Counted from the first letter of the stretch, positions 278 to 63,747 are shown. The stretch: 64,000 nt of DNA from Dehalococcoidia bacterium (GCA_048539495.1 JBLYPS010000001.1:11235-75234); one strand, 5' to 3'. Notes: generated by a model not told the origin, from the sequence alone. Made by a program: numbers and translations.

Positions 278-338
278 TAAGTTTTAAGTTCTAAGTTGTA
301 GGTTTTAAGCTTAGCATAACACTTAAAACCTACAACTT
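278..338. repeat. Heptamer-repeat hairpin element (TAAGTTT/AAACTTA type)
   Basis: aagttgtaggttttaag (293-309) is the exact reverse complement of cttaaaacctacaactt (322-338); 7-nt period. Confidence 0.85.
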
Positions 339-438
339 TTTTCCTGAGGGCATGCTCTATAATAACAGATTATCGCCGCCTGATGTCAAGTCCCTTGTCG
401 AACCGACAAGACCACGGAAAGCTATGAGGCGCGCCCCC

Positions 439-467
439 TTGACAAAACCCTGCAAACCTAATAGATT
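439..467 (+). promoter_or_regulatory. Putative sigma70 promoter for the epimerase gene
   Basis: TTGACA-17 nt-TAGATT. Confidence 0.45.
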
Positions 468-511
468 CAAGAAAGTATAGAGTTAGTATCTTGCAAAAAT
501 AGTTGCACTAT

Positions 512-646
512 GTCATTGCGAGGAGCGTAGCGGTTGCGAGGCGCAGCCGAAGCAAACTCGGAGCGGGATTCCTCGCTTACGCTCGGAACAAGCTCCGCAA
601 TCCCAAGCTAGGATGCAATAGATTGCTTCGCTTCGCTCGCAATGAC
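512..646. repeat. REP/RPE-like palindromic miniature element (GTCATTGCGAG...CTCGCAATGAC) with an internal second palindrome
   Basis: 11-bp terminal inverted repeat, internal gaagca/tgcttc arms and cgcttcgctc mini-hairpin. Confidence 0.8.
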
Positions 647-681
647 GGGAAAAACTGTGCACTGATTTATAAGGAGATAAC

Positions 682-1617
682 ATGAAAATCCTGGTTACCG
701 GTGGGGCAGGATTTATTGGTTCGCACATAGTCGATGCCTTAATTGAGAGGGGTCACCAAGTAGTGGTGATAGATAACCTGGCCACCGGCTCGCTGGAGAA
801 CATCAATCCCAGCGCCACATTCTACAAGATGAGCATCTGTGATTCCGGGCTTGCCAGCATCTTTGAGCGGGAGAAACCGCAGATCGTCAGCCACCAGGCC
901 GCTCAGATGGTCATCACCAGGTCGGTAGCTGAACCCATCTTTGATGCCCAGGAGAACATCCTGGGCAGCCTTAATGTTATTCTCAACTGCGCCCGCTTTG
1001 GCGTAAGGAGGATTATCTATGCCTCCTCCGGCGGAGCAATTTACGGAGAGCCGGACCACCTGCCGGTTAACGAGACACATCCCATAAATCCGCTCTCACA
1101 ATATGGGATTTCCAAGCACACTGTGGAGCATTATCTGCACCTTTATGGTATTCAACACCGGCTGAACTACGTGGTGCTGCGATATCCTAACGTTTACGGT
1201 CCGCGACAGAACCCTAACGGGGAAGCCGGGGTGGTGGCTATCTTCGCCGGCCAGATGCTCCGGGGAGAGCAGCCGACCATCTTCGGTTCCGGGGATAAGA
1301 CCCGGGATTACACCCATGTATTTGATGTGGTGGCAGCCAACCTGCTGGCAATGGAGCGCGAGAACGACGGCATCTACAATATCGGCACCGGGGTGGAGAC
1401 CTCTGACAAAGAGCTCTTTGACACCCTGGCCAGGGTGCTGGGCTATTCCGGGAATCCCCGTTATGCGCCGGTTCGGGCTGGGGAGGTTTACCGTATCTGC
1501 CTCGATGCCACAAGGGCGCAAAAGGAGCTGGGCTGGCAGGCACGGCTCTCTCTCGAAAAAGGACTCCTCGAGACGGTCAGCTATTATGAGGAACGTTTGA
1601 AAGTGATTAGTGATTAG
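682..1617 (+). CDS. NAD-dependent epimerase/dehydratase (UDP-glucose 4-epimerase family)
   Basis: GGAGFIGS Rossmann motif, YGISK (YxxxK), RYPNVYGP; AAGGAG RBS; stop codon lies within the downstream repeat. Confidence 0.93.
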   Translation: MKILVTGGAGFIGSHIVDALIERGHQVVVIDNLATGSLENINPSATFYKMSICDSGLASIFEREKPQIVSHQAAQMVITRSVAEPIFDAQENILGSLNVILNCARFGVRRIIYASSGGAIYGEPDHLPVNETHPINPLSQYGISKHTVEHYLHLYGIQHRLNYVVLRYPNVYGPRQNPNGEAGVVAIFAGQMLRGEQPTIFGSGDKTRDYTHVFDVVAANLLAMERENDGIYNIGTGVETSDKELFDTLARVLGYSGNPRYAPVRAGEVYRICLDATRAQKELGWQARLSLEKGLLETVSYYEERLKVISD

Positions 1618-1663
1618 TGATTGGGGGCTGGGACAGACCACTAATTACCAATCACCAGTCACC
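1603..1663. repeat. Heptamer hairpin element (GTGATTA/TAATCAC type) overlapping the epimerase stop
   Basis: gtgattagtgattagtgatt - gggggctggg - actaattaccaatcaccagtcacc. Confidence 0.85.
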
Positions 1664-1708
1664 ATTCGGGGGATGATATCACCCCAGCCAATTCTGCGAA
1701 GCTATAAT

Positions 1709-2157: not shown

Positions 2158-2158
2158 A

Positions 2159-2615: not shown

Positions 2616-2618
2616 GAG

Positions 2619-3537
2619 TTGATCACCGCTGAGTCGGTCAGGGCATTGCTTCCTTTGCGCCCACTCGACGCTAACAAGGGAACTTTCGGGCGATTGCTGG
2701 TGGTGGCCGGCTCCATCAACTACATCGGTGCGGCATACCTCGCCTGTGAGGGAGCAATGCGGGTAGGGACGGGGCTGGTCACCCTGGCCACTGCAAAGAG
2801 TCTTCATCCAATTCTGTCTGGCAGGCTCATCGAGGTAACCTATATCCCTCTGCCGGAGAGCGAGCCCGGTGTCATTAAGAGGGAGGCCGCGCCAGTAATT
2901 CGGGAGCAGCTTCCTGACTATGACGCCATGCTTCTCGGATGTGGATTGGGACAGGATCCGGAGACGGCACGATTTCTCAGAGAACTCCTCTTCGACGGTC
3001 AGCACAGCAGTCGGCAGTCGGCAGTCGACAGTCCGGGGGGCGGGGGACTATCGACTATCGACTGATATGATCATCGATGCCGATGGTTTGAATATACTGG
3101 CGCGAATCCCGCAGTGGTGGCAGATGCTGCAGGGCAAAGCGGTGCTCACCCCCCATCCCGGAGAGATGTCGCGGCTCACCGGAGACCCTGTAGCTGAGAT
3201 ACAAAAAGGACGTTTAGAGACTGCCCTGAAGGCTGCTGCGGAATGGAAGCAGACGGTGGTGCTCAAGGGAGCCTATACGGTGCTGGCCTCATCCGAAGGT
3301 CAGGGCAGGATATGCGGGACGGCCAACCCCGGGCTCGCTTCGGCGGGAACCGGGGATGTCCTCTCGGGGGTTATCGCCGGGCTGATGGCCCAGGGGCTTT
3401 CGCCCTTTGATGCCGCCAGTTGCGGCGTCTATCTTCATGCCATGGCAGGAGAGTTGGTAAAAGCGGAGATTGGCGATACCGGCATGGTTGCCAGCGATCT
3501 CCTGCCCAGGTTGCCGCTGGTGATAAAAAGGACCTGA
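2619..3537 (+). pseudogene. nnrD: NAD(P)H-hydrate dehydratase (YjeF C-terminal domain), apparently 5'-truncated and frameshifted at a heptamer hairpin
   Basis: RPLDANKGTFG..VVAGS..YIGAA..GCGLG in frame A (2619-3065); IIDADGLN..LTPHPGEM..VLKGA..LASAGTGDVLSG in frame A+1 (to 3537). Confidence 0.85.
3003..3064. repeat. Heptamer hairpin element (CAGTCGG/GACTATC type) inside nnrD
   Basis: cagtcggcagtcggcagtcgacagtc - ggggggcggggg - actatcgactatcgactg. Confidence 0.9.
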
Positions 3538-4554: not shown

Positions 4555-4566
4555 GAGAGACCGGGA

Positions 4567-17929: not shown

Positions 17930-17942
17930 TTTCCCTCCTCTA

Positions 17943-18010
17943 TCTGGAGTCTGGAGTCTGGAGTCTGGAGTCCCCGTCCCCTCCTCTCGACTCTCGACTC
18001 TTGACTTCTG
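17943..18010. repeat. Heptamer hairpin element (GAGTCTG/GACTCTC type), intergenic
   Basis: (tctggag)x4 tc - cccgtcccctcc - tctcgactctcgactcttgact. Confidence 0.9.
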
Positions 18011-18015
18011 ATCGC

Positions 18016-20314: not shown

Positions 20315-21670
20315 TTGACCAAGCGCATCATTGCCATCGTAGGCCGACCCAATGTGGGGAAATCGACCCTATTCAATCGTCTTGTCGGTGAGCGGCGGGC
20401 GATCACCGAGGATATCCCGGGGACCACTCGCGACCGGGCCTATGCCACTATCACCTGGCTGGATCAGCATTTTACCATCGTTGATACCGGTGGGCTGGAA
20501 CTCAGCCCCAACTCACCCATCAGCCAGAAAGTCAAGGAGCAGGTTGAAATCGCCATCGAGGAAGCCGACGCCATCATCATGCTGGTAGATGTGAAGGATG
20601 GTGTGACTATACCCGATAAGGAGATAGCCGAGACGCTCCGGCGATCGAATAAACCGGTGGTTCTGGCGGTTAACAAATGCGATAACGATGAGCGCACCCG
20701 GCAAGCATTTGAGTTTCACGAGATGCCTTTAGACCAGCCGATCACCATCAGCGCCTACCACGGCACAGGCATCGAGACACTCATGGAGAGGGTAACTGCG
20801 TCAATAGTCAAGAGTCAAGGGGAGGGGGACTCCAGACTCCAGACCCCAGACTCCAGACTCCTCGATCAGTCTGAGCCCGACATCATGAGCATAGCGATCC
20901 TTGGCCATCCCAATGTAGGGAAGTCAATGCTCCTGAATGCGCTGGTGGGACAGGAGCGGTCCATCGTCAGTGAGCTGCCGGGCACCACTCGCGACTCCAT
21001 CGATACCATAGTGGAGCGGGACGGATGGCGCGCACTGCTGATTGATACGGCGGGGATCCGGCGGCGGGGACGGATAGACCGCGGCGTAGAGACATACAGT
21101 GTGATGCGGGCGCTGAGGTCTATTGATCGGGCGGATATCTGCCTCCTGGTACTGGATGCCTCTGATATGCTGACCGCCCAGGATGCCCACATTGCCGGCT
21201 ATATAAGGGATGCCTATAAGGGAATCCTGCTGGTGGTCAACAAGTGGGATCTGGCCGATGAACTGGGATTGACGAAGAAAGACCGCATTCTCGAAGTAGA
21301 GAGGAACCTCAAGTTCCTGCATTACGCCCCGATGCTTTTTGTGTCCGCTAAGTCGGGGTTCGGAGTGAGCCAGATCCTGCCGGCGGCTGATGAAATCCAT
21401 CAGGCAAGGACTAAACGCCTCGACCCTTGCGAGCTGAGAGACATGGTAACGCGTGCCATAGAGCGACACCCTCCAATGACGAAAAGACACTTTTCTTTGC
21501 GCAATGTAATCCAACCGGAGGTTGTGCCTCCTACCTTTGTGTTTGCAGTCAACAACCCCGCCCTGGTTCACTTCTCTTACAGGCGATATCTGGAGAACAG
21601 CCTGCGGGATGCCTTTGGATTTACCGGCACGCCGCTGCGCCTCATCTTCAAGAAGAGGCTGAGTGAGTGA
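20315..21670 (+). CDS. engA: Ribosome biogenesis GTPase Der/EngA with in-frame repeat insertion (20800-20861) in the G1-G2 linker
   Basis: Two GxPNVGKS/DTxG/NKxD domains; insert SIVKSQGEGDSRLQTPDSRL. Confidence 0.97.
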   Translation: MTKRIIAIVGRPNVGKSTLFNRLVGERRAITEDIPGTTRDRAYATITWLDQHFTIVDTGGLELSPNSPISQKVKEQVEIAIEEADAIIMLVDVKDGVTIPDKEIAETLRRSNKPVVLAVNKCDNDERTRQAFEFHEMPLDQPITISAYHGTGIETLMERVTASIVKSQGEGDSRLQTPDSRLLDQSEPDIMSIAILGHPNVGKSMLLNALVGQERSIVSELPGTTRDSIDTIVERDGWRALLIDTAGIRRRGRIDRGVETYSVMRALRSIDRADICLLVLDASDMLTAQDAHIAGYIRDAYKGILLVVNKWDLADELGLTKKDRILEVERNLKFLHYAPMLFVSAKSGFGVSQILPAADEIHQARTKRLDPCELRDMVTRAIERHPPMTKRHFSLRNVIQPEVVPPTFVFAVNNPALVHFSYRRYLENSLRDAFGFTGTPLRLIFKKRLSE

Positions 21671-21741
21671 ATGGTGAATGGTGATTGGTAACTGGTAATT
21701 AGGGGTACGGGGTATCACCAATCACCAATCACTAATCACCA
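21667..21741. repeat. Heptamer hairpin element (TGGTGAT/ATCACCA type) containing the engA stop
   Basis: gtgaatggtgaatggtgattggtaactggtaatt - aggggtacgggg - tatcaccaatcaccaatcactaatcacc. Confidence 0.9.
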
Positions 21742-21750
21742 AGATATATA

Positions 21751-26223: not shown

Positions 26224-26862
26224 TCAAAACTCAGAACTCATTTGTTCCAGTTGGTTCAGTGCCTTCCTGGTATCACTGGCAAGACGGGTGCTATCGGAGT
26301 TCTCTATCCGATACTTGAAGAGCCAGTAAGTAAACTCGTTGAGCTCGGTGAGCGTGATATTCTCGCACGGAGGGTAGCCAACTTCCTGTCTGAAGAGTCC
26401 AAGTAGGACCGTTTCACTTGAACCATATATCCTCTGGAAGACATCTCCTGGGCAGTTAGAGATCTTTCCGTGTTGCTCCTTCTCTATTTCCATCTCAATA
26501 GCGAGATGCAGGGCTTGCTCCACTGTAATGCCGTAGAAATAGTTGAGATGAGCTTGATATTTCTCATTTCCGATGAGCCCCTTGAATTCGCCGGCGGAAA
26601 GCTCGATGGGCGGCTGGCCGAAGAGCAGCTCGACCCTTTCTTTTTCGGGGATGAGGCTGCCGATCTCCGCGGTCAGGCGTTCCGCCAGTAAGAGCCAGTC
26701 GAAGGCCTGGCCGGCGATAAGGTATCGGTAATGACGCCCTGCATAGGTCTCCTCGGGCAGGGTCCAGAGCGCAATAGCCTCGAGCAAGGCGATATACCAA
26801 TGCTTGCCATCTGCTATCGATTGCTTCAGGTGTCGTATGGCGCCAGCATCATAACTTGTCAT
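26224..26862 (-). CDS. Hypothetical protein
   Basis: 212-aa ORF with protein-like composition ([26 protein letters not shown]); stop lies in a short heptamer element at 26208-26240. Confidence 0.75.
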
Positions 26863-27072
26863 TTCAAGTTTTAAGTTTTAAGTTTTAAGGCTGTTCATAC
26901 CTGATGCTTCATTGCTCTCTAACCCTGAACCTTGAACCTGTGTAGTTACACAGCATAATTATAGCCCTCATCGAGCATTAGGGCAACGTGTCGTAAGTTT
27001 TAAGTTTTAAGGCTATTCATACCTGATACTTCATTGCTCTCTAACCGTGAACCGTTGAACCTTGAACCTGAG
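26863..27072. repeat. Two direct copies of an approximately 78-bp element with AAGTTTT and TGAACCT arms
   Basis: taagttttaagttttaaggct.ttcatacctgat.cttcattgctctctaacc.tgaacc at about 26865-26940 and 26994-27070. Confidence 0.85.
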
Positions 27073-37793: not shown

Positions 37794-37798
37794 GTAAC

Positions 37799-37905
37799 GA
37801 GTCTGGAGTCTGGAGTCATTGAGTCTAGAGTTCTGAGTTTTGAGGCCCCCCTATATACTCCTCTAAACTCGATACTCAATACTCGATACTCTCGACTCTT
37901 GACTC
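37799..37905. repeat. Heptamer hairpin element between proB and proA; inverted paralogue of 55200-55313
   Basis: gagtctggagtctggagtcattgagtctagagttctgagttttgagg ... ctctaaactcgatactcaatactcgatactctcgactcttgactc. Confidence 0.9.
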
Positions 37906-39525: not shown

Positions 39526-39531
39526 TCACAC

Positions 39532-40992
39532 ATGAAAATCCCTAGATGTAAGGGGGCCCGAGACTTGCTGCCCCAGGATATGTCACGATTCCGCCGCATC
39601 GAGGAGGTGTTCCGAGCTTGCTGCCTGGCCTGGGGGTATGGGGAGATCCGAACGCCCACGCTGGAGTATCTGCAACTCTTCACCTCGGCGGGTACCCTAA
39701 GTCCGAGTATGCTGGACCGAGTATATTCATTCCTCGATTGGGATGGTTGGAGCGGCGAGCGAGTGGTCTTGAGGCCAGACGGCACCATTCCATCGGCCCG
39801 GCTCTACGTAGAGAACCTATCAAAGAGCAGGGGGCGAGGGTCAGGGGGCGGGGGTCAGGGGACTAACAACTGTCAACTGACAACCGACAACTGGCCTGTA
39901 GCCAGGCTCTGCTACATTGAGAATATGTTCTCCTTTGAGGGATCAGGGCAGGAATCGAGGGAGCGGTGGCAATGCGGCGTCGAGCTGATTGGAGGCACTG
40001 AGCCGGAAGGCGACTCCGAGCTTATTATGCTAGCTCTGGAAATTCTCCAGAAACTCGATGTGAGGCTCGTCAACGTCAGGTTATCCCATGTCGGACTGCT
40101 CAAGGCTTTGCTGCAGGAGCTGGGCATGGAAGACAAGGAACAGGCTCAAATGCTGGGGGAGATGCTCGCCGGCGATACCGGTGCCCTCAGCCGATATGCG
40201 AGTCAAGAGTCGAGAGTCAAGAGTCAAGAGTCAAAGGGAGGGGGACTCCAGAGCGAAGCGTCTCCAGACTCCAGACTCCAGACTTTCATAAGGCTGCTTG
40301 GCCTGCAGGGGAAGTCGCCCGGATTCCTGGCAAATCTCAAGAGCGTCCTGCCGGAGAAGTTCTGCGCCATAAAGACTTACATTGACGATCTGGCTCAGGT
40401 TGCGGAGCTCCTCGACAGTATCGGACAGAGTTACCAGATAGACTTCGCTTCCGGTGAAGGATTTGAATACTATACCGGCATGGTGTTTCGATTTTACAGC
40501 TCAGAGGAGCTAGTGGGGAAGGGCGGCCGGTATGACGAGCTGATCCCGCTTGTCGGAGGGGATAATGTCCCTGCTTCCGGATTCGCCCTTTTCACCGATA
40601 GACTCATCTCCCTCCTAGGAGCCATAATAGGAGAAGAGAAGTCCGAAAGGATTCTCCTGACCGGAAGGACCGGTAATATCCAGGAAATGAAATCGTCCTT
40701 TGAGATTGCCAGTCTGCTCCGGGAAAAGGGCTGCATCGTCGAGAACGACCTGGGGCAGAGACACGGGGATGACTATCGCTGGATTGTCTCCTTAGAGAAA
40801 GATGGGGAAGCCATCCTCCTCACTTTAACCGATAAGACGACCGGCAGGGAGCAGAAAGGACTGTCCGTTGATCAGCTCCTACAACGAGTCGAGAGTCAAG
40901 AGTCTAGAGTCGAGAGTCGGGGAGGGGCGGGGGACTCCAGACCCCAGACCCCAGACTCCAGACTCCAAGAGGAGGAGGCCAAGTGCCACTAA
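39532..40992 (+). CDS. hisZ: ATP phosphoribosyltransferase regulatory subunit with three repeat insertions (39828-39894, 40200-40284, 40886-40967)
   Basis: HisRS-like motifs (TPTLE, LRPDGT, QCGVELIG, EYYTG, GGRYD) directly upstream of hisG. Confidence 0.88.
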   Translation: MKIPRCKGARDLLPQDMSRFRRIEEVFRACCLAWGYGEIRTPTLEYLQLFTSAGTLSPSMLDRVYSFLDWDGWSGERVVLRPDGTIPSARLYVENLSKSRGRGSGGGGQGTNNCQLTTDNWPVARLCYIENMFSFEGSGQESRERWQCGVELIGGTEPEGDSELIMLALEILQKLDVRLVNVRLSHVGLLKALLQELGMEDKEQAQMLGEMLAGDTGALSRYASQESRVKSQESKGGGLQSEASPDSRLQTFIRLLGLQGKSPGFLANLKSVLPEKFCAIKTYIDDLAQVAELLDSIGQSYQIDFASGEGFEYYTGMVFRFYSSEELVGKGGRYDELIPLVGGDNVPASGFALFTDRLISLLGAIIGEEKSERILLTGRTGNIQEMKSSFEIASLLREKGCIVENDLGQRHGDDYRWIVSLEKDGEAILLTLTDKTTGREQKGLSVDQLLQRVESQESRVESRGGAGDSRPQTPDSRLQEEEAKCH

Positions 40993-42614
40993 AACTGTCC
41001 CTGCCTAAGGGTTGGCTTCAAGGTAGTACCGCCGCCTTTCTCGAAAAGGCCGGTCTGGTATACCCTGACTACCACCAATCGAGCCGTTCCTATTGCCCGA
41101 AATGCCCGGGCTTCCCCGGCCTATTCAGCAAGGTTTTCCAAGAGAAGGATATCGCCATCCAGGTTGCCATCGGGAACTACGACCTGGCGATCTGCGGGCT
41201 AGACTGGATTCAAGAGCTGCTGGTAAAGTACCGCAGTGATGCGATCGTAAAAGTCCGCGACCTGGGATATGGGCAGCGCAATCTCTATGCGGGAACCAGC
41301 AGGTTCTCTGCTCTGCACTCGGTTGAAGATGTGAAAGCCGCGCCCGATGCCGTGCGCATCGTCAGCGAGTATCCCAATCTGGCCGAAGCCTTTGCCCTGA
41401 AGCTTAGACTGAAGAGATTTAGGGTGTTGCCTGTCTGGGGAGCAACCGACGCCTATCCACCGGAACACGCCGATCTGGCCATCGTCTCTGCCGCATCGTG
41501 TGAGGAGCTTGGGGAAAGAGACCTGATCCCCATAGCAAAGATTCTCACCGGTAATGCCTGGCTTATAGCCAATAGAAGCAGCCTCGAGCAGAAAGACATG
41601 AGTTCTCTGCTGTCGCCGTTTTACAGGACCGATCCCGTGGTAGAGGCCGGGGAGGAATTATCCATCTCGGAGATTGATTCCGAGGGCGAATTTCAAGAGT
41701 CGAGAGTCAAGAGTCAGGTAAATAGACTGAAGGTAGATAGGCTGAAGGAGGGGGGAGGGAGCCTTCAGCCTTCAGCCTTCAGCCTTCGGAGTCCAGACTC
41801 CAGACTCCAGACTGTATCGCTAGCACTGCCTGACGGTCACCAGCAAAGCCATGCGATCAAGCTCCTGAAAAAGGCTGGACTGAAGATCAATGGTTATGGT
41901 TCGGCCACGCGAAGGCCCCTGATGGATTTCGGCGAGGTCAATTCGAGTCGAGAGTCGAGAGTCGAGACTCCAGACTCCAGACTCCAGACTCCAGACTTCC
42001 TTGTGAAGGTGATCCGTCCGCAGGATATGCCCCTTCAAGTGGCCAGCGGAAACTTCGACCTGGCCATCACCGGCCGAGACTGGCTCAGGGATCATCTCTG
42101 CCGGTTTCCGACCAGCCCCGTCCAGGAGATAGCCGATCTTGGCTTTGGCTGGGTGCGCATTGTTGCGGTAGTTAGCAATAATCTGCCTGCAGATGACACC
42201 GGCGAATTAAGGAACCTGCTCCGATTCGGAAGTCGGGAGTCAGGAGTCAGGAGTCAGGAGTCGAGGAGAGGGGAGGAGGACTCTAGACTCCAGACCCTAG
42301 ACTCTAGACTCGTGTTGCGCATCGCCTCGGAGTACACCAACATCGCCGACAAATACGCCAGAGATAATCACCTTGCCCCATACAAGGTGATCCCCACATG
42401 GGGGGCTACCGAGGCATTTCTGCCGGAGGATGCCGATGTGCTTATCGAAAACACCGAGACCGGCAGGACTCTAGCCAAACACAATCTCAAGATCATTGAA
42501 ACCCTTTTTGAGTCCACGGGCTGTCTGATAGGCAACTCATCTCCAAGCCCGCTGAAGGAGTCAAGAATAACCAGCCTGGTAGAGATTCTGAAGAAGGGCG
42601 TGAATTCGGCCTGA
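40983..42614 (+). CDS. hisG: ATP phosphoribosyltransferase, tandem two-domain form, with three repeat insertions (41694-41813, 41944-41997, 42228-42311)
   Basis: Two copies of LP.G..Q / D...QVA.GN.DLAI.G.DW / SEY.N.A / WGAT; ENTETGRTL in the second copy. Confidence 0.9.
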   Translation: MPLKLSLPKGWLQGSTAAFLEKAGLVYPDYHQSSRSYCPKCPGFPGLFSKVFQEKDIAIQVAIGNYDLAICGLDWIQELLVKYRSDAIVKVRDLGYGQRNLYAGTSRFSALHSVEDVKAAPDAVRIVSEYPNLAEAFALKLRLKRFRVLPVWGATDAYPPEHADLAIVSAASCEELGERDLIPIAKILTGNAWLIANRSSLEQKDMSSLLSPFYRTDPVVEAGEELSISEIDSEGEFQESRVKSQVNRLKVDRLKEGGGSLQPSAFSLRSPDSRLQTVSLALPDGHQQSHAIKLLKKAGLKINGYGSATRRPLMDFGEVNSSRESRVETPDSRLQTPDFLVKVIRPQDMPLQVASGNFDLAITGRDWLRDHLCRFPTSPVQEIADLGFGWVRIVAVVSNNLPADDTGELRNLLRFGSRESGVRSQESRRGEEDSRLQTLDSRLVLRIASEYTNIADKYARDNHLAPYKVIPTWGATEAFLPEDADVLIENTETGRTLAKHNLKIIETLFESTGCLIGNSSPSPLKESRITSLVEILKKGVNSA

Positions 42615-51247: not shown

Positions 51248-52798
51248 ATGACTGAGCCGAACGTTCGGGTGCGCTTTGCCCCCAGCCCTACCGGATACCC
51301 TCATGTGGGGAATATCAGGACCGCCCTGTTCAACTGGCTGTTCGCCCGCCACTACGGCGGTAGCTTTATCGTCAGGATCGAGGATACCGATCAAGCCCGC
51401 AAGGTGGAAGATGCCCTCGAAAGTATCCTCGATAGCCTGCGCTGGCTGGGACTGGACTGGGACGAGGGGCCGGAGGTGGGTGGGGACTACGGGCCCTACT
51501 TTCAGTCCGAGCGACTCGACACGTATCATTCTTACGCCCGACGGTTGCTCGACGAAGGTCACGCCTATCTCTGTTATTGCCCCCCGGAGCGGCTCGATGA
51601 GATGCGTGTCGAACAGGCTCGACGGAAGGAGCCGCCGCGCTACGACCGGCGCTGTCGCAATTTGAGTCGAGAGTCCCGAGTCGAGAGTCCCGAGTCGGGG
51701 GGGGAGGGGGACTCCAGAGCGAAGCGTCTCCAGAGCGAAGCGTCTCCAGAGCGAAGCGTCTCCAGACTCGTCACCCCGGTGGTGCGCCTTAAAACACCGC
51801 TCGACGGGCAGACTCGGTTTCACGATCTGATCCGGGGTGAGATAGTCTTCGAGAACAGCACTTTGGACGATTTTGTGCTCCTCAAATCGGATGGCTATCC
51901 CACATATCACCTGGCCAATATCGTCGACGACCACCTGATGGCAATTTCCCACATCATGCGAGCCGACGAGTGGCTCTCCAGCACCCCACGCCACGTCTTG
52001 CTCTATCAGGCATTTGGGTGGCAACCGCCTCTTTTTGCTCACCTGCCCATGATCCTCGGTCCCGACAAATCCAAACTGAGCAAGCGCCATGGGGCAACAT
52101 CAGTTACCGAACTGAAGGATCAGGGGTATCTCCCGGAGGCGGTGCTCAATTTCCTGGCCTTGCTGGGCTGGTCTCTAGATGACCACACCGAGATCTTGAG
52201 CCGAGAGGAACTGGTGACTAATTTCTCCATCGAGCGCGTAAGCAAGACCGGGGCCATCTTCAATCACGAGAAACTCCGCTGGATGAACGGGGTTTATCTT
52301 CGAGAACTCCGCCCCGAAGCCTTCTTGCAGCGGATAATGCCGCTTCTGGAGAGCTCCCTGCCGCAGGAAGTGGAGCGTCCCATCTCCGAGGAATATGTGA
52401 GGCGCATCGTGCCCCTGATTCAGGAGCGCATAGCTACTTTGAATGAACTCGGCGCCTACACCGACTTCTTCTTCCTCGATGCACTGCAGTATGATCCATC
52501 GCTGCTGGTCGGCAAGAAGATGACTCCGCAGTCCACACTCACGGCGCTGAATGCGGCACGGGAGAAGCTCTCCGCACTGGAGAGTTTTGATACTGATTCC
52601 ATGGAAGGCACGCTTCGTCCCCTGGCTGAGGAGATGGGACTCAAGACAGGTCAGCTTTTCGGTGTCTTGAGGGTAGCCGTCACCGGCCGCACCGCCGCCC
52701 CACCCCTCTTTCAGACGATGGTGGTTTTGGGGAAAGGGAAGTGCCTGCGGCGGATTGAGGCGGCTATCACTCTCCTTTATCGTTTAGATTCAATGTGA
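51248..52798 (+). CDS. gltX: Glutamate-tRNA ligase with in-frame repeat insertion (51664-51769)
   Basis: RFAPSPTG.PHVGN (HIGH), RIEDTD, KLSKR (KMSKS); insert SRESRVESPESGGEGDSRAKRLQSEASPERSVSRL. Confidence 0.97.
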   Translation: MTEPNVRVRFAPSPTGYPHVGNIRTALFNWLFARHYGGSFIVRIEDTDQARKVEDALESILDSLRWLGLDWDEGPEVGGDYGPYFQSERLDTYHSYARRLLDEGHAYLCYCPPERLDEMRVEQARRKEPPRYDRRCRNLSRESRVESPESGGEGDSRAKRLQSEASPERSVSRLVTPVVRLKTPLDGQTRFHDLIRGEIVFENSTLDDFVLLKSDGYPTYHLANIVDDHLMAISHIMRADEWLSSTPRHVLLYQAFGWQPPLFAHLPMILGPDKSKLSKRHGATSVTELKDQGYLPEAVLNFLALLGWSLDDHTEILSREELVTNFSIERVSKTGAIFNHEKLRWMNGVYLRELRPEAFLQRIMPLLESSLPQEVERPISEEYVRRIVPLIQERIATLNELGAYTDFFFLDALQYDPSLLVGKKMTPQSTLTALNAAREKLSALESFDTDSMEGTLRPLAEEMGLKTGQLFGVLRVAVTGRTAAPPLFQTMVVLGKGKCLRRIEAAITLLYRLDSM

Positions 52799-53890: not shown

Positions 53891-54715
53891 GTGAGTGAGT
53901 TCATAAAGAAGCTGGAGCGAATCTCGCGCGAAAAGACACGGCCTCTGGGATTTGGCGGAATAGCGAAGCCTAAGAACGCGGGCATGATGCTGATTGCCCA
54001 GTTGCCCCCGAGCGAAGCTAGCACAGGAAATTCCATTCCCGAAGAAGTGGATGCCCTGTTGTTCGACGTTAAGGACTCAGATGACCGGGTCGAGCTCCTG
54101 TCGATGCGAGTCAAGGATCAAGAAGCCAGAAGCCAGAAGCCAGACTCTTGCCTCTTACCTCTTGCCTCTTGCCTCTTGCCTCTCGTTCCCTGGGGGGTCC
54201 GGCTGGGGACTGCGGACACCGAGGGACTAGCTGAACTTGCCGATGCAGGCTGTGACTATCTGGTATTCAAATCTGACGTGTCGGCCAGAATCGTCGTAGA
54301 GGAAAGAATGGGCTTGGTACTTGAGATCGATACCTTGCTGGGCGATAGCCTGGCCAGAGCTGTGGGGCAAATATCCGTCGAGGCCATACTTCTCAGAAGC
54401 AACGATGAACTGCCCCTGAGCGTGCATCGGCTGTTGGAGTACCAGCGGCTGATCGCTCTTGCTGGAACACCGGCCATAGCGCTCTTGCCTGCTGACATTT
54501 CCGACCTGAAATCCCTGTGGGGGATCGGGGTGAGGGGGGTGGTGGTGGACCTGAGTGGCGAGGATCGGGAACAAAAACTCTCTGCGGTGAGGGAGGCCAT
54601 TCGGAGATTGCCGGCATCACGAAAGAAACTACGGGAGAGGATCAACCCGATCTTGCCAGCCGTGCAAGCGCTTGATGAAGAGTTTGAAGATGAAGAGTTT
54701 GAAGAGAAAATATAG
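53891..54715 (+). CDS. Hypothetical protein with in-frame repeat insertion (54108-54184)
   Basis: AAGGAG RBS, 274 aa; insert RVKDQEARSQKPDSCLLPLASCLLPL. Confidence 0.75.
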   Translation: MSEFIKKLERISREKTRPLGFGGIAKPKNAGMMLIAQLPPSEASTGNSIPEEVDALLFDVKDSDDRVELLSMRVKDQEARSQKPDSCLLPLASCLLPLVPWGVRLGTADTEGLAELADAGCDYLVFKSDVSARIVVEERMGLVLEIDTLLGDSLARAVGQISVEAILLRSNDELPLSVHRLLEYQRLIALAGTPAIALLPADISDLKSLWGIGVRGVVVDLSGEDREQKLSAVREAIRRLPASRKKLRERINPILPAVQALDEEFEDEEFEEKI

Positions 54716-55199: not shown

Positions 55200-55313
55200 G
55201 AGTTAAGAGTATCGAGTATCGAGTATTGAGTATCGAGTATCGAGTTTAGAGGAGGGGAGGGGGGAGGCCTCAAAACTCAAAACTCAGAACTCTAAACTCA
55301 ATGACTCCAGACT
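55200..55313. repeat. Heptamer hairpin element (GAGTATC/AAAACTC type)
   Basis: (gagtatc)-type units x5, gagtttagaggaggggagggggg, cctcaaaactcaaaactcagaactctaaactcaatgactccagact. Confidence 0.9.
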
Positions 55314-57459: not shown

Positions 57460-59168
57460 CCTTAATCCGTGGATTAGAGAGCCGGTTTACATCTGGATCA
57501 GATTGGGGTAAACTATCACCCAGGAGGTGATTTAGATCGTGAAGCAAAAGAAGTCACTTTTGGGTGTAGCGCTTACTGGGGGGTTAGAAGAGGAAATGAC
57601 CGCATGGGCAGGAACCTCGCTCCTGATAGAAATAGGGCGAAAGTGTGGAGCGATAGAGATAGCAGAGAGGGTACTACCCCCAAAGAAGTTAGTCAAAGGG
57701 TTAACGCAAGGGCAAATGGTGGAGTCTTTTGTTCTTTTGAGTGCCGTGGGTGGGGACTGCATTGATGATATGGAGCAATTACGGTGGGATAAGGGATTAG
57801 TAGCGATGGTGGGATACACCCCCCTAGGAGACGGCAAGGCAATGGCTGGACAAATTTCATGATGAGGAGCTGATGGCAGGGCGGCCGCTGCAGGGTTCAT
57901 TCCTTCCCCCGAAATCGAAGCCTTTAGCAGAGTTAAGGGAGGTAAGCCGGCGAGTGATAGTGAGGTTATAGGTTATAGGCGATAGGCGATAGGGGCACCG
58001 CGTAACCCCTATCACCTATTACCCATTACCTAAAAATAGAGGATGCCCAGTATTGTTACAAAGGACACAAAGCTTTTCAGCCCGCAGTGGTAACCTGGGC
58101 GGAGACCAGGCTGGTGATGGTTGATGAGTTTCGAGAGGGGAATGTGCCTGCTTCTAAGGATACGATAAGGCTGGTAGATGACGCTCATGAGATGCTACCG
58201 CTGGGGCTATGGCGGGTAAGGGTGAGGTCTGACCAGCTTATGAGCAGCGGAAGCCACTGGCACAATCGGGGATGGGAGTTTGCGGTGAGTGCTGATATGA
58301 GTCCGCAACTTAGACAGGAGATTGAAGCCTTACCGGAAGATGCTTGGAAGGTGTGGAAAGAAGAGAAACGAGGGATGGTGCGAGAATGGGCTGAGGTGCC
58401 ATATGTACCCGGCAGAAAATATGAGAAGAAAGATGCTCAACCCTACCGCTATCTGGCGATCAGGGTGCGTCGGCAACAAGGGGAGTTATTTGAGGAAGGA
58501 GTTAAGGTACGTCACCATGCTGTGGTAAGCAACAATTGGGATATGGATGGGCAAGCTCTATTGGAGTGGCAACGAGGCAAAGCCGGGACTATTGAGCACA
58601 TTCATCACATTCTGAATAATGAACTAGCAGCAGGGGTGTATCCCAGCGCTAAACATGGAGCCAACGCTGCCTGGTTAAGGCTACAGGTGCTGACCCACAA
58701 CTTACTCCAACTGCTGAAGGTAGTTGCCTTGCCGCAAGAATATGCTACTGCCCGACCCAAGCGGCTAAGATTTGCCATCTTCACTCAGTTCGGGCGCATA
58801 GTGCGTCATGCTGGTCAGGTCTTGCTGCGCCTTGCTAGTGAGGCTTGGAAGACCATAATTGGTCCAGGACACCGTAGCGTACAAGCGGTGAGATGGGACA
58901 GTAGCTAAGGCATACAAATATCTGTCTCCATCCAGCAAACAGAAAACAGAGCTGGTTCATCCTCCAGAGGGAGAGAGTTTGCCTCACGAAGACCAGGATG
59001 GTCAATTATTAGCTAATCAGCACCCGCAGAAGCCTATAGTGGCAAGATAAAAGTGCCTTTTAGTAGCTCAATCTGGCCTGGTTTGCTTGGCACCTGAAAT
59101 CCCATGCCGGCAAAATACCCATAATCGCTGTCAGCGTCATTTTACTCGACTTAACTCACGGATTAAGG
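57460..59168 (+). mobile_element. IS1380-family insertion sequence with broken transposase
   Basis: TIR ccttaatccgtg / cacggattaagg; fragments 57539-57862 and about 58035-58908 (DEFREGNVPA, RVRSD, GTIEHIH..L.NEL, ANAAW..L..L.HNL). Confidence 0.85.
57955..58033. repeat. Heptamer hairpin element (AGGTTAT/CCTATCA type) inside the IS1380 transposase
   Basis: aggttataggttataggcgataggcgatagggg ... cccctatcacctattacccattaccta. Confidence 0.88.
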
Positions 59169-60632: not shown

Positions 60633-60757
60633 GCGAACCATGGGTATTGAGTTTTGAGGAGGGGGGGAGGTCTCTAAACTCTAAACTCGATTAGGGCATT
60701 GCCGAAATATGGGAGGAGTAGGGGGCGAATTTATTCGCCTCGAGGCTCGTCAATCAA

Positions 60758-61447
60758 ATGTCTGCCAGTAAGATCCTGATAGTAGAAGACGAACATACTC
60801 TGCTTGAAGCGCTGCGTTACAACCTCGAGAAAGAAGGGTATACGGTGGTCACGGCAGTTGATGGCATTCAAGCGTTAGACTCGGCGCGCTCTGAGTCGCC
60901 CGATCTGATCATCCTCGACATCATGCTGCCCCAACTGGACGGTTTCGAGGTCTGCCGTATCCTGCGCAAGGACATGGCCGTGCCCATCCTGATCCTCACC
61001 GCCAAAGGCGAGGAGATAGACAAAGTGATCGGCCTGGAATGGGGTGCTGATGACTATATGGTCAAGCCCTTCAGCATGCGTGAACTCAAGGCCCGCATCA
61101 AAGCCATACTGCGCCGCACCGCATCCGAACCCCAGAGCGCCGAGGAGGGTGTGCTAAAGATAGGCGACCTGACGATAGACCCCGGCGGACATAAGGTTAC
61201 TCTGGGAGAATCCGTCGTCACTCTTAACCCAAAAGAGTACGATCTCCTTGCCTTCCTGGTCAAGAACAAAGGGCGGGTCTTTTCACGGGAGCATCTCCTG
61301 GAACGTGTTTGGGGCTATGACTACGTCGGGGACACCCGCACAGTGGATGTTCACATTCGCTGGCTTCGGGAGAAAATAGAGTCTGATCCGTCAAAACCCA
61401 GACGGTTGATAACCGTCAGAGGTACAGGCTACAAGATCGAAGGTTAG
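60758..61447 (+). CDS. OmpR/PhoB-family response regulator
   Basis: ILIVEDE, LDIMLP, GADDYMVKPF, RTVDVHIRWLREKIE. Confidence 0.96.
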   Translation: MSASKILIVEDEHTLLEALRYNLEKEGYTVVTAVDGIQALDSARSESPDLIILDIMLPQLDGFEVCRILRKDMAVPILILTAKGEEIDKVIGLEWGADDYMVKPFSMRELKARIKAILRRTASEPQSAEEGVLKIGDLTIDPGGHKVTLGESVVTLNPKEYDLLAFLVKNKGRVFSREHLLERVWGYDYVGDTRTVDVHIRWLREKIESDPSKPRRLITVRGTGYKIEG

Positions 61448-61448
61448 C

Positions 61449-62924
61449 ATGTTTCGCAGCATTAAATGGCGGATAGCCATATCCTTTATCTCGCTCATGC
61501 TGGTCAGCATGGCGGTATTCTTCTTTGCGGAGATCGATCGCGCGGTGATAATCGCCCTCGCTCTGGTAATAGGCATTGCTATGCTGCTTGCGCTCTCTAT
61601 CACACGGGCCACCGTGAGCTCGATTAAGGGGGTTACCCGGGCAATGGAAGGGATAGCATCGGGAGAGATAGACCAGAAAATCTACGTCGGGACAAGGGAT
61701 GAATCCGCTGAACTGGCGCACGCCTTCAATGAGATGGCGCAGAGTATTAAACAGACGATAGGCACGCTCTCTACGGAGCGGAATATGCTGGCGGCCATGC
61801 TCTCGACGATGGTGGATGGCGTGTTGATGACTAACCTCGAAGGAAACGTTCTCATGGCAAATTCAGCCGCCGAGAAACTCTTCGGCTTTAAGTTCGCAAA
61901 GGGATATCCCCTGATAGAAACAATCCCGGACCATGAGATCAGCGATATTCTGCAGTCGTGTCTGAGGAGTGGACAACAACAGGCGGGGCAAATCGATTCA
62001 CGGGGTCGGCTTCTCAGGGTTATCGCTACCCCGATCGTGGTCCGTGCCCGTGGTCCGTATCCGGACACGGGGGACGGACACGTACTCCGGACACGGGGGA
62101 CGGACACGTACTCCGGACACGGCGGTGCCTTGCTCATATTTCAAGACCTCACTGAGGTCAAGCGCTTCCAGACGACGAGGCAGGAGTTCGTAGGCAATAT
62201 CTCGCATGAACTGAGAACCCCTCTAGCGTCGATGAAGGCCGTCCTGGAGACCCTTAACGAGGGAGCGATCGACGACCGCCCGAAGCTTGAGGATTTTCTG
62301 ACTATGATGGGTGGCGAGGTTGACCGTATGACCCGGTTGGTCCGGGAGCTGGCGGAACTATCTCGGATCGAGACCGGGCAAGATAAGTTGAAGATGGCTG
62401 CGGTAGACTTGAATTCAGTAATTGACCAGGCCATAACCAAGCTGAAACCGCAGTCACAAAGAAAGCAGATCGATATCTTGAGGCAGTCCGATCCTTCATT
62501 GCCGATGATCCCGGCGGAAGAAGAGCGAATCCTGCAGGTGCTAACTAACCTGCTTGATAATGCCATCAAGTTCACTCCAGCGGGCGGCAAGATTATTATC
62601 TCGGCTGAGTCGGAGGGAGAGAGCGTCTTAGTCACCGTGGAGGATACGGGTGTGGGCATCCCGGCAGACTCTCTGCCGCATGTTTTTGAGCGCTTCTATA
62701 AGGCGGATAAGGCTCGTTCCAGTGAGGGCACCGGACTGGGGCTTGCCATCGCCAGGCACATAGTTCAGGCTCACGGAGGCGAGATCTGGGTGAAGAGCAA
62801 GGAGGGTCAAGGCTCCGTTTTCAGTTTCAGGATGCCGGCCACCAAGAGTCGAGAGTCGAGAGTCAAGAGTGAAGAGTCACGGGGAGGGGGACTCCAGACT
62901 CCAGACTCCAGACTGGAGGGATGA
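61449..62924 (+). CDS. PhoR-like sensor histidine kinase (HAMP-PAS-HisKA-HATPase) with internal (62040-62121) and C-terminal (62843-62914) repeat insertions
   Basis: SHELRTPL, NLLDNAIKF, DTGVGI, GTGLGLAI. Confidence 0.95.
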   Translation: MFRSIKWRIAISFISLMLVSMAVFFFAEIDRAVIIALALVIGIAMLLALSITRATVSSIKGVTRAMEGIASGEIDQKIYVGTRDESAELAHAFNEMAQSIKQTIGTLSTERNMLAAMLSTMVDGVLMTNLEGNVLMANSAAEKLFGFKFAKGYPLIETIPDHEISDILQSCLRSGQQQAGQIDSRGRLLRVIATPIVVRARGPYPDTGDGHVLRTRGTDTYSGHGGALLIFQDLTEVKRFQTTRQEFVGNISHELRTPLASMKAVLETLNEGAIDDRPKLEDFLTMMGGEVDRMTRLVRELAELSRIETGQDKLKMAAVDLNSVIDQAITKLKPQSQRKQIDILRQSDPSLPMIPAEEERILQVLTNLLDNAIKFTPAGGKIIISAESEGESVLVTVEDTGVGIPADSLPHVFERFYKADKARSSEGTGLGLAIARHIVQAHGGEIWVKSKEGQGSVFSFRMPATKSRESRVKSEESRGGGLQTPDSRLEG

Positions 62925-62925
62925 A

Positions 62926-63747
62926 TTGAGGCAAGTTCCAGCTCCAATAGTTTCCCGCACGCAGGTAATGCCCGGGGTTTACCTTATTTGGGTTGAGGCT
63001 CCGGATATCGCTGCGGAAGCTCGACCAGGGCAGTTTGTCACTGTTCGCTGTGGGGAACACCTTCCGCTGCGTCGCCCATTGAGCATTCATAGAACTGATG
63101 GTCGAAAGCTGGCCCTACTCTTCGCCGTGGTAGGACAGGGGACTAAATGGCTCTCAGTCCGCATGGTTGGCGAATCTCTGGATCTCCTGGGTCCGCTGGG
63201 GAACGGCTTTGAGATCCGCCAGGGTTCACAGAAATTGCTTCTGATTGCTGGAGGAATCGGCGTCGCTCCTTTAATAGCCCTGGCCGATGAGGGAGTGGGC
63301 AATGGCCTCCTGGTGAAATTTGTGATCGGTGCAAAAACCGCCTCCAAACTCTATGCCCCAGAGTCTGGAGTCTGGAGTCTCGAGTCTGGAGTCTGGAGTC
63401 TCGAGTCTGGAGTCTCGAGTCTAGAAGCAGTGGAGCTCATTCGGGTGACTGATGATGGTTCGGCGGGAGAGAGGGGTCAGGCAACTGATTTTCTGCCTTC
63501 CCTTGCGGATTGGGCCGACCAGATCTTTGCCTGTGGCCCGCTCCCCATGTATCGCCGGATGGCAGAGATGAGGGCTTGGCCTGGCAACAAATCTGTGCAG
63601 GTTCTTCTGGAGCAGGTGATGGGCTGCGGGGTGGGGGCCTGCCGCGGCTGCGCCGTGGTGACCAACAAGGGAATAAAGCTGGTATGTGAAGAGGGTCCCG
63701 TATTCGAGCTGGGGGAAATTGTCTGGGATAAGAGTTTTAAGTTCTGA
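62926..63747 (+). CDS. pyrK: Dihydroorotate dehydrogenase electron transfer subunit with a 63-bp in-frame heptamer array (63361-63423)
   Basis: PGQFV, LRRPLS, GPLGNGF, AGGIGVAP, ACGP, MGCGVGACRGC..C.EGPVF; TTG start after GGAGG. Confidence 0.93.
   Translation: MRQVPAPIVSRTQVMPGVYLIWVEAPDIAAEARPGQFVTVRCGEHLPLRRPLSIHRTDGRKLALLFAVVGQGTKWLSVRMVGESLDLLGPLGNGFEIRQGSQKLLLIAGGIGVAPLIALADEGVGNGLLVKFVIGAKTASKLYAPESGVWSLESGVWSLESGVSSLEAVELIRVTDDGSAGERGQATDFLPSLADWADQIFACGPLPMYRRMAEMRAWPGNKSVQVLLEQVMGCGVGACRGCAVVTNKGIKLVCEEGPVFELGEIVWDKSFKF

Follow-up and report, generated by a model that had tools for sequence, protein, structure and literature searches.

Probably mobile hairpins with 7-nt periodicity lie in frame within housekeeping genes of a groundwater Dehalococcoidia bacterium

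The window analysed here, a 64,000-nt stretch of DNA from a Dehalococcoidia bacterium (GCA_048539495.1, JBLYPS010000001.1:11235-75234), carries many short hairpins whose arms are tandem arrays of 7-nt units, or heptamers. The window lies on contig C1 of a genome of 1.86 Mb in 80 contigs, 97% complete, which we label G000. Its phylum is probably Chloroflexota, in which the Atlas cluster nearest to its H+-PPase is commonest. The account we favour, as probable rather than assured, is that these heptamer hairpins are small non-coding copy-and-paste elements that have bloomed in one genus of groundwater bacteria and are read through in frame where they fall inside genes; that they constitute a mobile, non-autonomous hairpin family is well supported.

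Host genes in the window are those for Der (20315-21670), TyrA (32964-34133, minus strand), HisZ (39532-40992), HisG (40983-42614), GltX (51233-52798) and PyrK (62869-63747). Elements in genes or at their edges are as follows, with z denoting RNA fold energy relative to dinucleotide shuffles and G004 one of four congeners described below.

2983..3089, plus: CAGTCGG/GACTATC hairpin in yjeF-C, the gene being split into frames 2619-3065 and 2920-3537
17941..18012, minus: GAGTC hairpin in a Rid open reading frame (ORF), as an N-terminal extension of ORF 17549-18022 (minus)
20799..20862, plus: GAGTC hairpin in der (engA), within the linker that joins its two GTPase domains; ~14 aa added, net +42 nt
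33447..33543, minus: CAGTCGG/GACTATC hairpin in tyrA, G-rich loop on the coding strand; z = -2.8
39828..39896, plus: GGGTCAG/CTGACAA hairpin in hisZ; net gain 66 nt relative to G004
40195..40290, plus: GAGTC hairpin in hisZ, its right arm with a 16-nt sub-insert of GCGAAGC core; z = -3.9
40886..40968, plus: C-terminal GAGTC hairpin of hisZ, directly before the hisG start; net gain 81 nt
41693..41816, plus: two nested hairpins in hisG, outer GAGTC and inner GGCTGAA/AGCCTTC, occupying the linker of the double-HisG ORF; -60 kcal/mol, z = -6.2
41943..42000, plus: spacer-less GAGTC hairpin in hisG; clean 60-nt gain without target duplication
42226..42312, plus: GAGTC hairpin in hisG; z = -2.9
51664..51766, plus: GAGTC element in gltX, its right arm with 3.4 copies of a 16-nt sub-repeat; z = +0.25
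54095..54195, minus: AGAAGCC/CTCTTGC hairpin, antisense in putative ORF 53891-54715, which has no NCBIfam match
62842..62918, plus: GAGTC hairpin at the C-terminus of a histidine kinase (gene 61449-62924), upstream of pyrK
63337..63431, plus: (GAGTCTG)x9 array in pyrK, reading as a GVWSLES repeat

The gene names proposed in a first-pass annotation of the window (Der, TyrA, HisZ, HisG with three elements, GltX and PyrK) stand, except that hisZ holds three elements rather than two; the in-frame placement that it describes is sustained for these six genes. One further copy, in yjeF-C, is out of frame and splits the gene. The gltX element falls between positions ~131 and 132 of the TIGR00464 profile, at a site that the congener sequences do not cover, and the Rid-ORF copy may instead belong to a 5' untranslated region, the Rid profile beginning only at residue 34. 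A protein-database search with the 42-aa HisZ insert region, a short, low-complexity and hence uninformative query, gave five candidates, of which only the protein itself passed. The hisG ORF (543 aa, 40983-42614) is a tandem fusion of two HisG-like halves and is likewise fused in G004; the HisG NCBIfam profile covers only residues 279-516 of it.

Period 7 dominates the tandem repeats. In the window, about 80 of the 107 rows reported by Tandem Repeats Finder have this period, and every subfamily heptamer named in the first-pass annotation is present among its results; exact arrays (at least two copies plus 3 nt) number 44 at period 7 against 4, 3 and 1 at periods 4, 5 and 6, with none at periods 8-12. 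Genome-wide, the same rule gives 341 arrays of period 7 vs 24 of period 6 and two of period 8, and a looser rule gives 550 period-7 arrays that merge into 404 loci, or 2.5% of the genome. Where one hairpin architecture had been described at about 30 window loci, we counted 35 period-7 loci, of which 22 exceed the 95th percentile of random loci in an ungapped hairpin score; the genome-wide scan that had been proposed, once run, found at least 212 hairpins with inverted arms in 1.86 Mb (212 of the 404 loci hold an ungapped stem above the same percentile). The figure is too low, since an ungapped score misses hairpins that need a gap to fold, the Der element among them. Folded as RNA, 10 window elements have energies of -27 to -60 kcal/mol, with z at or below -2 in eight of the 10; values range from -1.6 to -6.2, gltX (+0.25) being the exception.

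The elements share one plan, 50-120 nt long: a tandem array, a G-rich spacer and an inverted array. The 5' arm comprises 3-7 tandem units, the loop 9-16 nt and the 3' arm inverted units, and the stem is built of runs of five paired positions with a 2 x 2 mismatch between them, one per heptamer; among arrays of G000 whose nearest neighbour lies within 60 nt, inverted-complementary neighbours outnumber direct ones by 43 to 14. Oriented by the loop, which is 52% G, the hairpins have a 5' arm of 34% G and 15% C and a C-rich 3' arm. The consensus unit of the 5' arm contains GT in 168 of 193 oriented hairpins, in agreement with an earlier remark that most left arms keep a GT every 7 nt, and AC in 19; by distinct heptamer the figures are 53 and 11 of 72. 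The presence of GT in most 5' arms means that the heptamer families are not arbitrary and have an AGT/GT core in common, so that the idea that structure rather than sequence defines the family holds only in part: fold and period are constant, but the arms share this core and a fixed polarity.

The main family has the consensus (GAGTCRA)n-GGGGAGGGG-(GACTCCA)n, with a GGGGAGGGG-like loop, and 59 copies in G000, all of which run GAGTC arm, G loop, GACTC arm and none in the opposite order. GACCCCA variant units are common to GAGTC copies at unrelated loci, and at least eight copies, also at unrelated loci, carry in the right arm a 16-nt unit with a GCGAAGC core, single in most carriers and present in 3.4 tandem copies in gltX (window 51712-51766); this unit may be an even smaller, nested mobile unit. 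A hairpin of another kind, a small GTAG-tagged repetitive extragenic palindrome (REP), is nested in the loop of three GAGTC copies. Near-identical elements recur in unrelated contexts, with 40 pairs of at least 88% identity over at least 85% of their length.

We placed the 212 hairpins of G000 on a codon-usage-based gene model (1826 genes, 84.6% coding): 89 lie within genes, 54 over a gene end and 69 between genes. Seventy-six are set back by 90 nt or more from either end of the gene; the 62 genes concerned comprise 50 with one such hairpin, 11 with two and one with four. All 20 host proteins submitted to NCBIfam gave strong matches to housekeeping families, namely PurK-PurE, TsaC, CarA, CarB, nicotinate phosphoribosyltransferase, PyrC, pyruvate carboxylase B, AccD-AccA, FtsK, aldehyde oxidoreductase, acyl-CoA dehydratase activase, PolA, IF-2, IspH, DnaE (four elements), RpoC, UvrA (two elements), TilS, DinG and Dxr. 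The predicted peptides are exemplified by ESRVKSQESRV-GEGG-DSRLQTPDSRL for GAGTC copies and QSAVGSRQS-GRG-TIDYRLST for the CAGTCGG family; as a tandem heptamer encodes the same 7-residue repeat in every frame, the choice of frame merely shifts its phase.

Frames and orientations of the intragenic copies depart from those of the rest. At 103 period-7 loci of G000, one frame is open for at least 100 codons on either side. Hairpins outside genes are closed in all three frames of the G-rich strand in 81 of 110 cases (39 of 49 over gene ends, 42 of 61 intergenic); intragenic hairpins have a mean of 2.0 open frames on that strand and 1.06 on the other. The GAGTC family is intragenic in 47 of 56 classed copies, about the coding fraction of 0.846, and its intragenic copies are sense to antisense 42 : 5; the corresponding figures for the CAGTC family are 12 of 13 and 11 : 1, and the remaining families together are intragenic in 30 of 143. 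The sense share of GAGTC copies, 89%, compares with 67% expected from stops alone (binomial p = 6e-4, with some circularity), and sense GAGTC peptides are more hydrophilic than antisense ones (mean Kyte-Doolittle -1.37 vs -0.39). Judged from DNA sequence, the intragenic data fit translation through the elements.

For comparison we used four genomes of the same genus (G001, G002, G003 and G004; aligned DNA 77-99% identical). For each of the nine comparable intragenic sites of the window, one congener or more is without the G000 element, and the net length differences are multiples of 3 at all nine. The der element is absent from G001 and G003. The yjeF-C site and that of a REP doublet at 27701 are empty in G003, as is the tyrA site, which in G004 holds a GAGTTCT-type hairpin and in G000 the CAGTCGG type; hisZ 39828, hisZ 40886 and hisG 41943 are empty in G004. 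At the other hisZ and hisG sites G004 has ~30-43 nt of unrelated sequence (40195..40290), 31 nt that include one AGCCTTC-like unit (41693) or ~15 nt of native sequence (42226), and at the Rid-ORF site (17941..18012) G001 has a different hairpin. Host proteins were aligned to orthologues, as the first-pass annotation had advised, and empty sites were thereby defined: Der is 451 aa long in G000 vs 430-438 aa in 23 full-length orthologues of the order, and its insert is absent from all 25 other genomes in which the site is covered (these 23 and two partial orthologues).

It had been reasoned that the same inserts at the same sites throughout the clade would speak against mobility. Instead, presence and absence vary among congeners, and this variation, the near-identical copies in unrelated contexts and the genus-restricted bloom described below all support the earlier view of a mobile dispersed family. 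Together, empty sites and genus restriction point to recent copy-and-paste spread without target-site duplication.

In the yjeF-C gene of G000, for NAD(P)H-hydrate dehydratase, profile positions 3-122 and 126-277 fall in two frames split at the CAGTCGG hairpin. The element is 7 nt, or one unit, longer than in G002 and G004, and in G004 the gene is a single open frame of 301 residues that reads ...SSRQSGGWGTIDYRLST... through the element. A length difference of one unit implies that the arrays slip by whole units and that an intragenic slip shifts the frame; unit counts also differ between G003 and G004 at window 30909. The G000 gene could be a pseudogene, a consensus error in the repeat, or a slippage switch or variable site. 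A frame-switch scan of G000 gave 33 candidate loci, mostly ordinary gene boundaries such as hisZ/hisG, and missed the yjeF case.

A frame broken by exactly one unit is also what might be seen if repeats had been misjoined into the genes of a metagenome-assembled genome, and congener contigs often end at heptamer repeats. Chance misjoins, however, would not hold frames open at 103 loci, and independently assembled congeners have in-frame elements of their own (tyrA and yjeF-C in G004, a 693-aa ORF in G003). Moreover, contigs of eight groundwater runs from two studies contain 0.90-0.96 of the sampled 31-mers of window 39501-42700, a 3.2-kb stretch with six elements, a share to be read with the recurrence of arm words elsewhere in the genome and with the chance that one DNA run is the source sample. 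We give an assembly artefact next to no credence.

The same yjeF-C break also speaks for a reading in which intragenic hairpins are intervening sequences, cut from the RNA or skipped by the ribosome so that their peptides would never be made. G000 has a ~135-nt hairpin insertion in its 23S rRNA gene at the classical site of such sequences, after which TIGR02436 genes, considered below, were first named according to the accessible part of PMC3936711. Removal would, however, make frames and stops irrelevant, yet the gains are multiples of 3 at nine of nine sites, 103 loci are open in frame throughout, and the intragenic copies come from stop-free families. About one-fifth of the words in 39501-42700 touch an element, so element-free RNA would be expected to contain less than ~0.8 of them; two of the eight runs are metatranscriptomes and contain 0.95 and 0.90, a weak point given repeated words elsewhere and possible DNA carry-over. 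We therefore think it very improbable that the hairpins are removed or skipped.

Outside genes, or over their ends, the window holds the following elements.

1600..1667, plus: AGTGATT/CACCAAT hairpin; overlaps the stop codon of an epimerase gene
21666..21742, plus: GGTGAAT/ATCACCA intergenic hairpin after der; z = -5.5
26861..27070, no strand assigned: two AAGTTTT ... GAACCTT intergenic elements, the first absent from G001; same family in G002 and G004
27701..27792, plus: GTAG-tagged REP doublet (38-nt unit), then an ACCAGTC array; not a heptamer hairpin
30619..30737, minus: GAGTC-type intergenic hairpin; other heptamer families at the site in G001, G002 and G004
37797..37892, minus: GAGTCTG/GAGTTYT intergenic hairpin
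55200..55301, plus: GAGTATC/CTCAAAA intergenic hairpin with G-rich loop; z = -4.1
57963..58035, minus: AGGTTAT/ATAGGCG intergenic hairpin; z = -4.6

Sites such as 30619..30737, where a hairpin is kept at an orthologous intergenic position though its sequence differs among congeners, would be expected if the hairpins were structural elements selected by the host, for example RNase III or other processing sites, mRNA stabilisers, attenuators, G-quadruplex or hairpin switches, or protein-binding sites, with spread secondary. The folds are strong, and the available text of two papers offers precedents: G-rich heptamer repeats of Xanthomonas and Nostoc form quadruplexes near gene ends (PMC4692102), and the TAACTGA repeats of Beggiatoaceae have been proposed to act in translation (PMC4679880). 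Yet the intergenic hairpins of G000 have no preference for orientation or gene end (31 vs 26 near 3' ends, 22 vs 27 near 5' ends), and a terminator role was rejected, as a T-run follows only 14 of 123 non-intragenic hairpins and orientation is unbiased. No heptamer hairpin of the window matches an Rfam family at the gathering score, and 76 copies of the genome occupy 62 unrelated housekeeping genes, at positions where close relatives have an empty site. Host selection as the primary cause seems to us improbable.

The bloom is confined to a narrow range of genomes. Four consecutive GAGTCNN units match 180 times in G000 and 30, 5, 21 and 46 times in its congeners; in other genera there is one match in one of 26 genomes of the order and none in the remaining 25 (16 genera), and a reversed control pattern matches in none of the genomes of the order that were searched. 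Some 23 kb sampled from the five genomes of the genus contain 12 period-7 arrays, and ~130 kb sampled from the 26 other genomes contain three, all adjoining TIGR02436 genes. A hairpin pattern of two GAGTC, 7-24 nt and two GACTC occurs in two of 200 other genomes of the phylum (G138, locus L240; G080, locus L242). One of the two, distant and 6.3 Mb in size, has a GAGTCGG bloom of its own, with 49 pattern matches per strand, in which arms are fully complementary and loops short and not G-rich; three other sampled genomes of its genus lack the pattern. The second has three matches per strand. Among the matches listed for five GAGTCNN units in species representatives there are many phyla (cyanobacteria, Lysobacteraceae, Gemmatimonadales, Acidobacteriota and Chitinophagaceae among them), and 121 of the 127 arrays listed from other phyla are plain direct ones, an inverted partner lying within 110 nt in six. 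Eight stretches of viral contigs match the hairpin pattern, and tblastn found no TIGR02436 gene in them. These counts indicate that the bloom is specific to the genus and that similar blooms arise sporadically elsewhere.

The first-pass annotation had named TIGR02436 (Avd-like four-helix-bundle) genes, described as often heptamer-flanked, as a candidate partner absent from the window. None indeed lies there; G000 holds three elsewhere, each preceded by an array whose inverted complement follows the gene, and of 31 genomes of the order, 19 have members of the family. We compared 31 TIGR02436 genes with both flanks present, from 15 genomes, with 200 small control genes. The inverted match between upstream and downstream flanks has a median score of 19 vs 8 for controls (p = 2e-18), 27 of the 31 loci exceed the control 95th percentile for flanking inverted repeats, and lag-7 self-similarity is raised on both flanks (p = 1e-8 and 1e-6). 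The upstream arm has more G than C at 27 of 31 loci, the polarity of the short elements; the GC skew of the downstream arm is noisy (11 of 31), and a strict array caller, which under-calls, finds both arms at five of 31 loci vs two of 459 controls.

The arms travel with the gene. Three related TIGR02436 genes from three genomes and two families (proteins 76-85% identical) share DNA similarity over only ~370-430 nt; as similarity is limited to the arms and the gene, with unrelated flanks, the arm-gene-arm unit, about 425 nt long, is itself a mobile module. In other phyla, all six TIGR02436-like genes among the matches listed are, by eye, flanked by inverted heptamer-like arms, and three of the six have a GAGTC/GACTC array within 200 nt (Chitinophagaceae, L042; Phormidium, L104; and L134), Phormidium on both sides. 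The flanking is thus borne out, both against controls and across phyla. The heptamers that flank the three genes of G000 recur genome-wide in 33, 24 and 20 loosely defined arrays, and one of them forms the inner hairpin of the hisG linker. The closest solved chains are XCC0516 (2GSC, E = 1.8e-15) and 2RLD, with five chains per entry; Avd is pentameric. We consider the association of heptamer arms with TIGR02436 genes strongly supported as an association; that the protein acts on the arms is possible, and on balance we doubt it.

If the hairpins are copy-and-paste elements, insertion would act on DNA and need no cut by a classical transposase: template switching or microhomology would allow a hairpin-forming donor to be copied into a break or gap, followed by slippage. 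Such copying is favoured by the absence of target duplication, by the small extent of target loss and by occasional microhomology. Selection would then retain those intragenic copies that are a multiple of 3 nt long, stop-free and hydrophilic. A filter of this kind would account for the presence of the stop-free GAGTC and CAGTC families in genes at about the coding density and mostly in sense, and for the confinement of stop-containing families to intergenic DNA. The short elements would be related to a longer mobile unit, whose similar arms bracket a TIGR02436 gene, but would lack its ORF.

A number of observations weigh against this account. Comparison of nine intragenic sites with their empty counterparts reveals no target-site duplication, with 0-43 nt of target replaced. 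Some empty sites look like a single unit or like the junction of loop and arm, and at six window sites the congener hairpin belongs to a different heptamer family, which a simple transposon model does not predict; swapped families and unit-like empty sites agree no less with hot spots or local generation than with transposition. No transposase or other enzyme could be tied to the heptamer hairpins in G000. The single RAYT-type Y1 transposase gene of the genome is preceded by three tandem units with the GTAG-tagged hairpin rather than by heptamer arrays, and a reverse transcriptase of the type found in diversity-generating retroelements (DGR) was rejected as a candidate, the only RVT_1 matches being group II intron reverse transcriptase/maturase fragments at contig ends. 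Of 26 genomes from other genera, 15 hold TIGR02436 genes without a GAGTC bloom, and no ORF-bearing copy of the GAGTC family was seen in G000 or at the 31 loci examined in its relatives. The long TIGR02436 units have no G-rich loop, and the short elements are therefore not simple deletion derivatives of them. Finally, our counts are approximate, with an ungapped hairpin caller and a crude codon-usage gene model.

The family swaps bear on the origin of the hairpins. Of ~21 window loci with a comparator, only ~4, counted by eye, have a family match at the corresponding position in any congener, and swaps at orthologous sites could reflect insertion hot spots or in-place turnover. They would also be expected if each element were immobile and generated locally, from a native seed by 7-nt replication slippage and fold-back (snap-back) synthesis. 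Unit-like seeds in some empty sites (the AGCCTTC-like unit at 41693; also 42226 and 41943) and whole-unit array changes between genomes fit such an origin, and in many bacteria the heptamer is the commonest of the longer simple repeats, with slippage proposed as the cause in the accessible part of PMC4679880. Against this, the 59 GAGTC copies share a consensus that extends to the loop, to the non-complementary RA/CA dinucleotides and to polarity; irregular sub-inserts recur at unrelated loci; most empty sites have no seed; and the family is limited to one genus in the order. Fold-back synthesis, moreover, would make arms perfectly complementary, and the observed arms are not. We judge local generation distinctly unlikely.

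The presence of a RAYT (REP-associated tyrosine transposase) gene raises the question of whether the hairpins are REPIN-type elements moved by it. The gene, at G000 C1:94676-95134, matches NF047646 with 131.6 bits against a cut-off of 80 and is the only one of its type, and REPINs are hairpin doublets spread by a single-copy RAYT, as described in the available part of PMC3116915. The gene adjoins GTAG-tagged REP units rather than heptamer arrays, however, and was rejected as mobiliser of the heptamer hairpins, being flanked by a different repeat. These REPs are a family of their own, with a doublet at a gene end (window 27701-27781) and copies in the loops of three heptamer hairpins; the heptamer hairpins have no GTAG tag, and their main family is mostly intragenic, unlike REPs. 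That RAYT moves them is hardly credible.

Other carriers were sought between arms. Listing the ORFs so enclosed, as the first-pass annotation had suggested, yielded no cargo besides TIGR02436 genes, and no parent insertion sequence (IS) whose transposase gene shares the terminal repeats was found, in a search that covered Y1 and reverse transcriptase genes and not DDE transposases. No four-helix-bundle ORF lies between the arms of the short hairpins, whose loops are 9-16 nt; translated loops of wider pairs are pieces of host genes or small host genes (infA, rpsL) and were rejected as cargo, and inverted array pairs at long range (150-4000 nt) are no commoner than direct pairs. On either side of infA, and likewise of rpsL (G000 C3:94167-94662 and C3:78223-78895), stand inverted arrays of a single heptamer family, which may be chance, from two separate intergenic hairpins in each case. 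GAGTC/GACTC are GANTC sites, which enzymes recognise; a restriction link was rejected, GAGTC being only mildly under-represented outside repeats (observed/expected 0.90, rank 37 of 512 pentamers).

The copy-and-paste account could be extended to a widespread mobile class that spans phyla, with heptamer-armed hairpins as its ends and TIGR02436 as its sole gene; a pentamer of the protein would read the 7-nt-spaced repeats of both arms and recruit replication or repair enzymes of the host, without a transposase. An ORF-less, stop-free derivative would have escaped in this genus and added hydrophilic peptides to over 60 housekeeping proteins, and intragenic arrays would serve as 7-nt slippage switches able to break the gene, as in yjeF-C. 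We offer this as speculation and think it rather unlikely as a whole.

Among known systems, the Rickettsia palindromic elements (RPE) came closest to the heptamer hairpins in their working; R. conorii has 44 recorded insertions, of which nearly half fall in ORFs, in the accessible part of PMC10969869. Both are small palindromic repeats that lie in frame in many unrelated housekeeping genes and add peptides without loss of the protein, and the heptamer hairpins resemble RPEs in having entered unrelated conserved genes in frame, at sites that stand empty in related genomes. The likeness proposed is one of working; RPEs are ~150 bp long with family-specific sequences and no 7-nt periodicity, unlike the tandem heptamer arms and G-rich loop seen here; the load here is also heavier (76 hairpins deep in 62 genes of 1.86 Mb), and the host is free-living, in groundwater. 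Heptanucleotide repeats such as STRR, GGGNATC and TAACTGA are likewise tandem 7-nt units, abundant, dispersed, lineage-specific and mostly non-coding as far as the accessible parts of PMC4692102 and PMC4679880 describe them. These STRR-type repeats are described as direct arrays, whereas here an inverted arm and a G-rich loop are the rule and hairpins lie in frame.

REPs and REPINs resemble the heptamer hairpins as short, dispersed, lineage-specific hairpins of tens to hundreds of copies (PMC3116915 and PMC3733652, in their available text), but the heptamer hairpins have neither a GTAG/CGTC tag nor an adjoining RAYT, and their main families are intragenic. Miniature inverted-repeat transposable elements (MITE) are also small, non-coding and multi-copy with inverted ends, and lie between and within genes with occasional in-frame fusions, according to the accessible text of PMC10969869. 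Unlike them, the heptamer hairpins have no target-site duplication (nine sites) and no transposase-bearing parent IS that we could find, and the whole element is a hairpin of tandem units, with no unique sequence between terminal repeats. The small dispersed repeats (SDR) of Nostoc, tiny mobile hairpins nested in tandem heptamer repeats, were reportedly described by Elhai et al. in 2008; SDRs would resemble the nested 16-nt GCGAAGC unit and the REP here, as guests rather than as the heptamer hairpin itself. TIGR02436 units share inverted arms, 7-nt periodicity and a G-rich first arm with the window elements, which unlike them have no ORF; conversely, the G-rich loop is missing from TIGR02436 units. 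A DGR, which pairs Avd with a reverse transcriptase, differs in that no DGR-type reverse transcriptase was found in the 97%-complete G000.

We found no account of heptamer-armed hairpins in frame in genes, in a literature search with incomplete coverage of subscription papers and supplements, and none of heptamer arms around TIGR02436 genes, of which the TIGRFAM or InterPro family notes may contain one. If the copy-and-paste account is true, this is among the heaviest known colonisations of essential genes by a selfish repeat, reaching RpoC, DnaE (four elements), IF-2, PolA, UvrA, GltX and Der. So heavy an in-frame load in a streamlined, free-living host of 1.86 Mb would make a natural experiment in the insertion tolerance of core proteins and the origin of linker peptides. 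It would also tie the heptamer repeats of cyanobacteria and other bacteria to a testable partner, the stand-alone Avd-like/23S intervening-sequence four-helix-bundle orphan family. In practice, the elements fragment assemblies, lengthen proteins and make frame breaks that resemble pseudogenes.

Some features of the genome stand apart from the heptamer hairpins. The only Rfam match in the window is a selenocysteine tRNA gene at 13077-13167 on the minus strand. The 23S rRNA gene (G000 C13:51179-54287, L239) has its ~135-nt hairpin insertion, which contains no ORF, near model position 583, in the classical intervening-sequence region. A ~210-nt repeat is present in four copies that are 98-100% identical (G000 C2:20097, C3:76249, C8:3916 and C19:17926), with sharp ends and unrelated flanks. 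The arms of its long hairpin are AAATCCC/GGATTTA-like, and the repeat probably represents a MITE or a family of small RNA genes. On contig C9, downstream of 42368, the N-terminus of a corrinoid iron-sulfur protein (AcsC-like, by eye) adjoins a TIGR02436 gene, which, on this predicted neighbour, suggests an anaerobe of Wood-Ljungdahl type.

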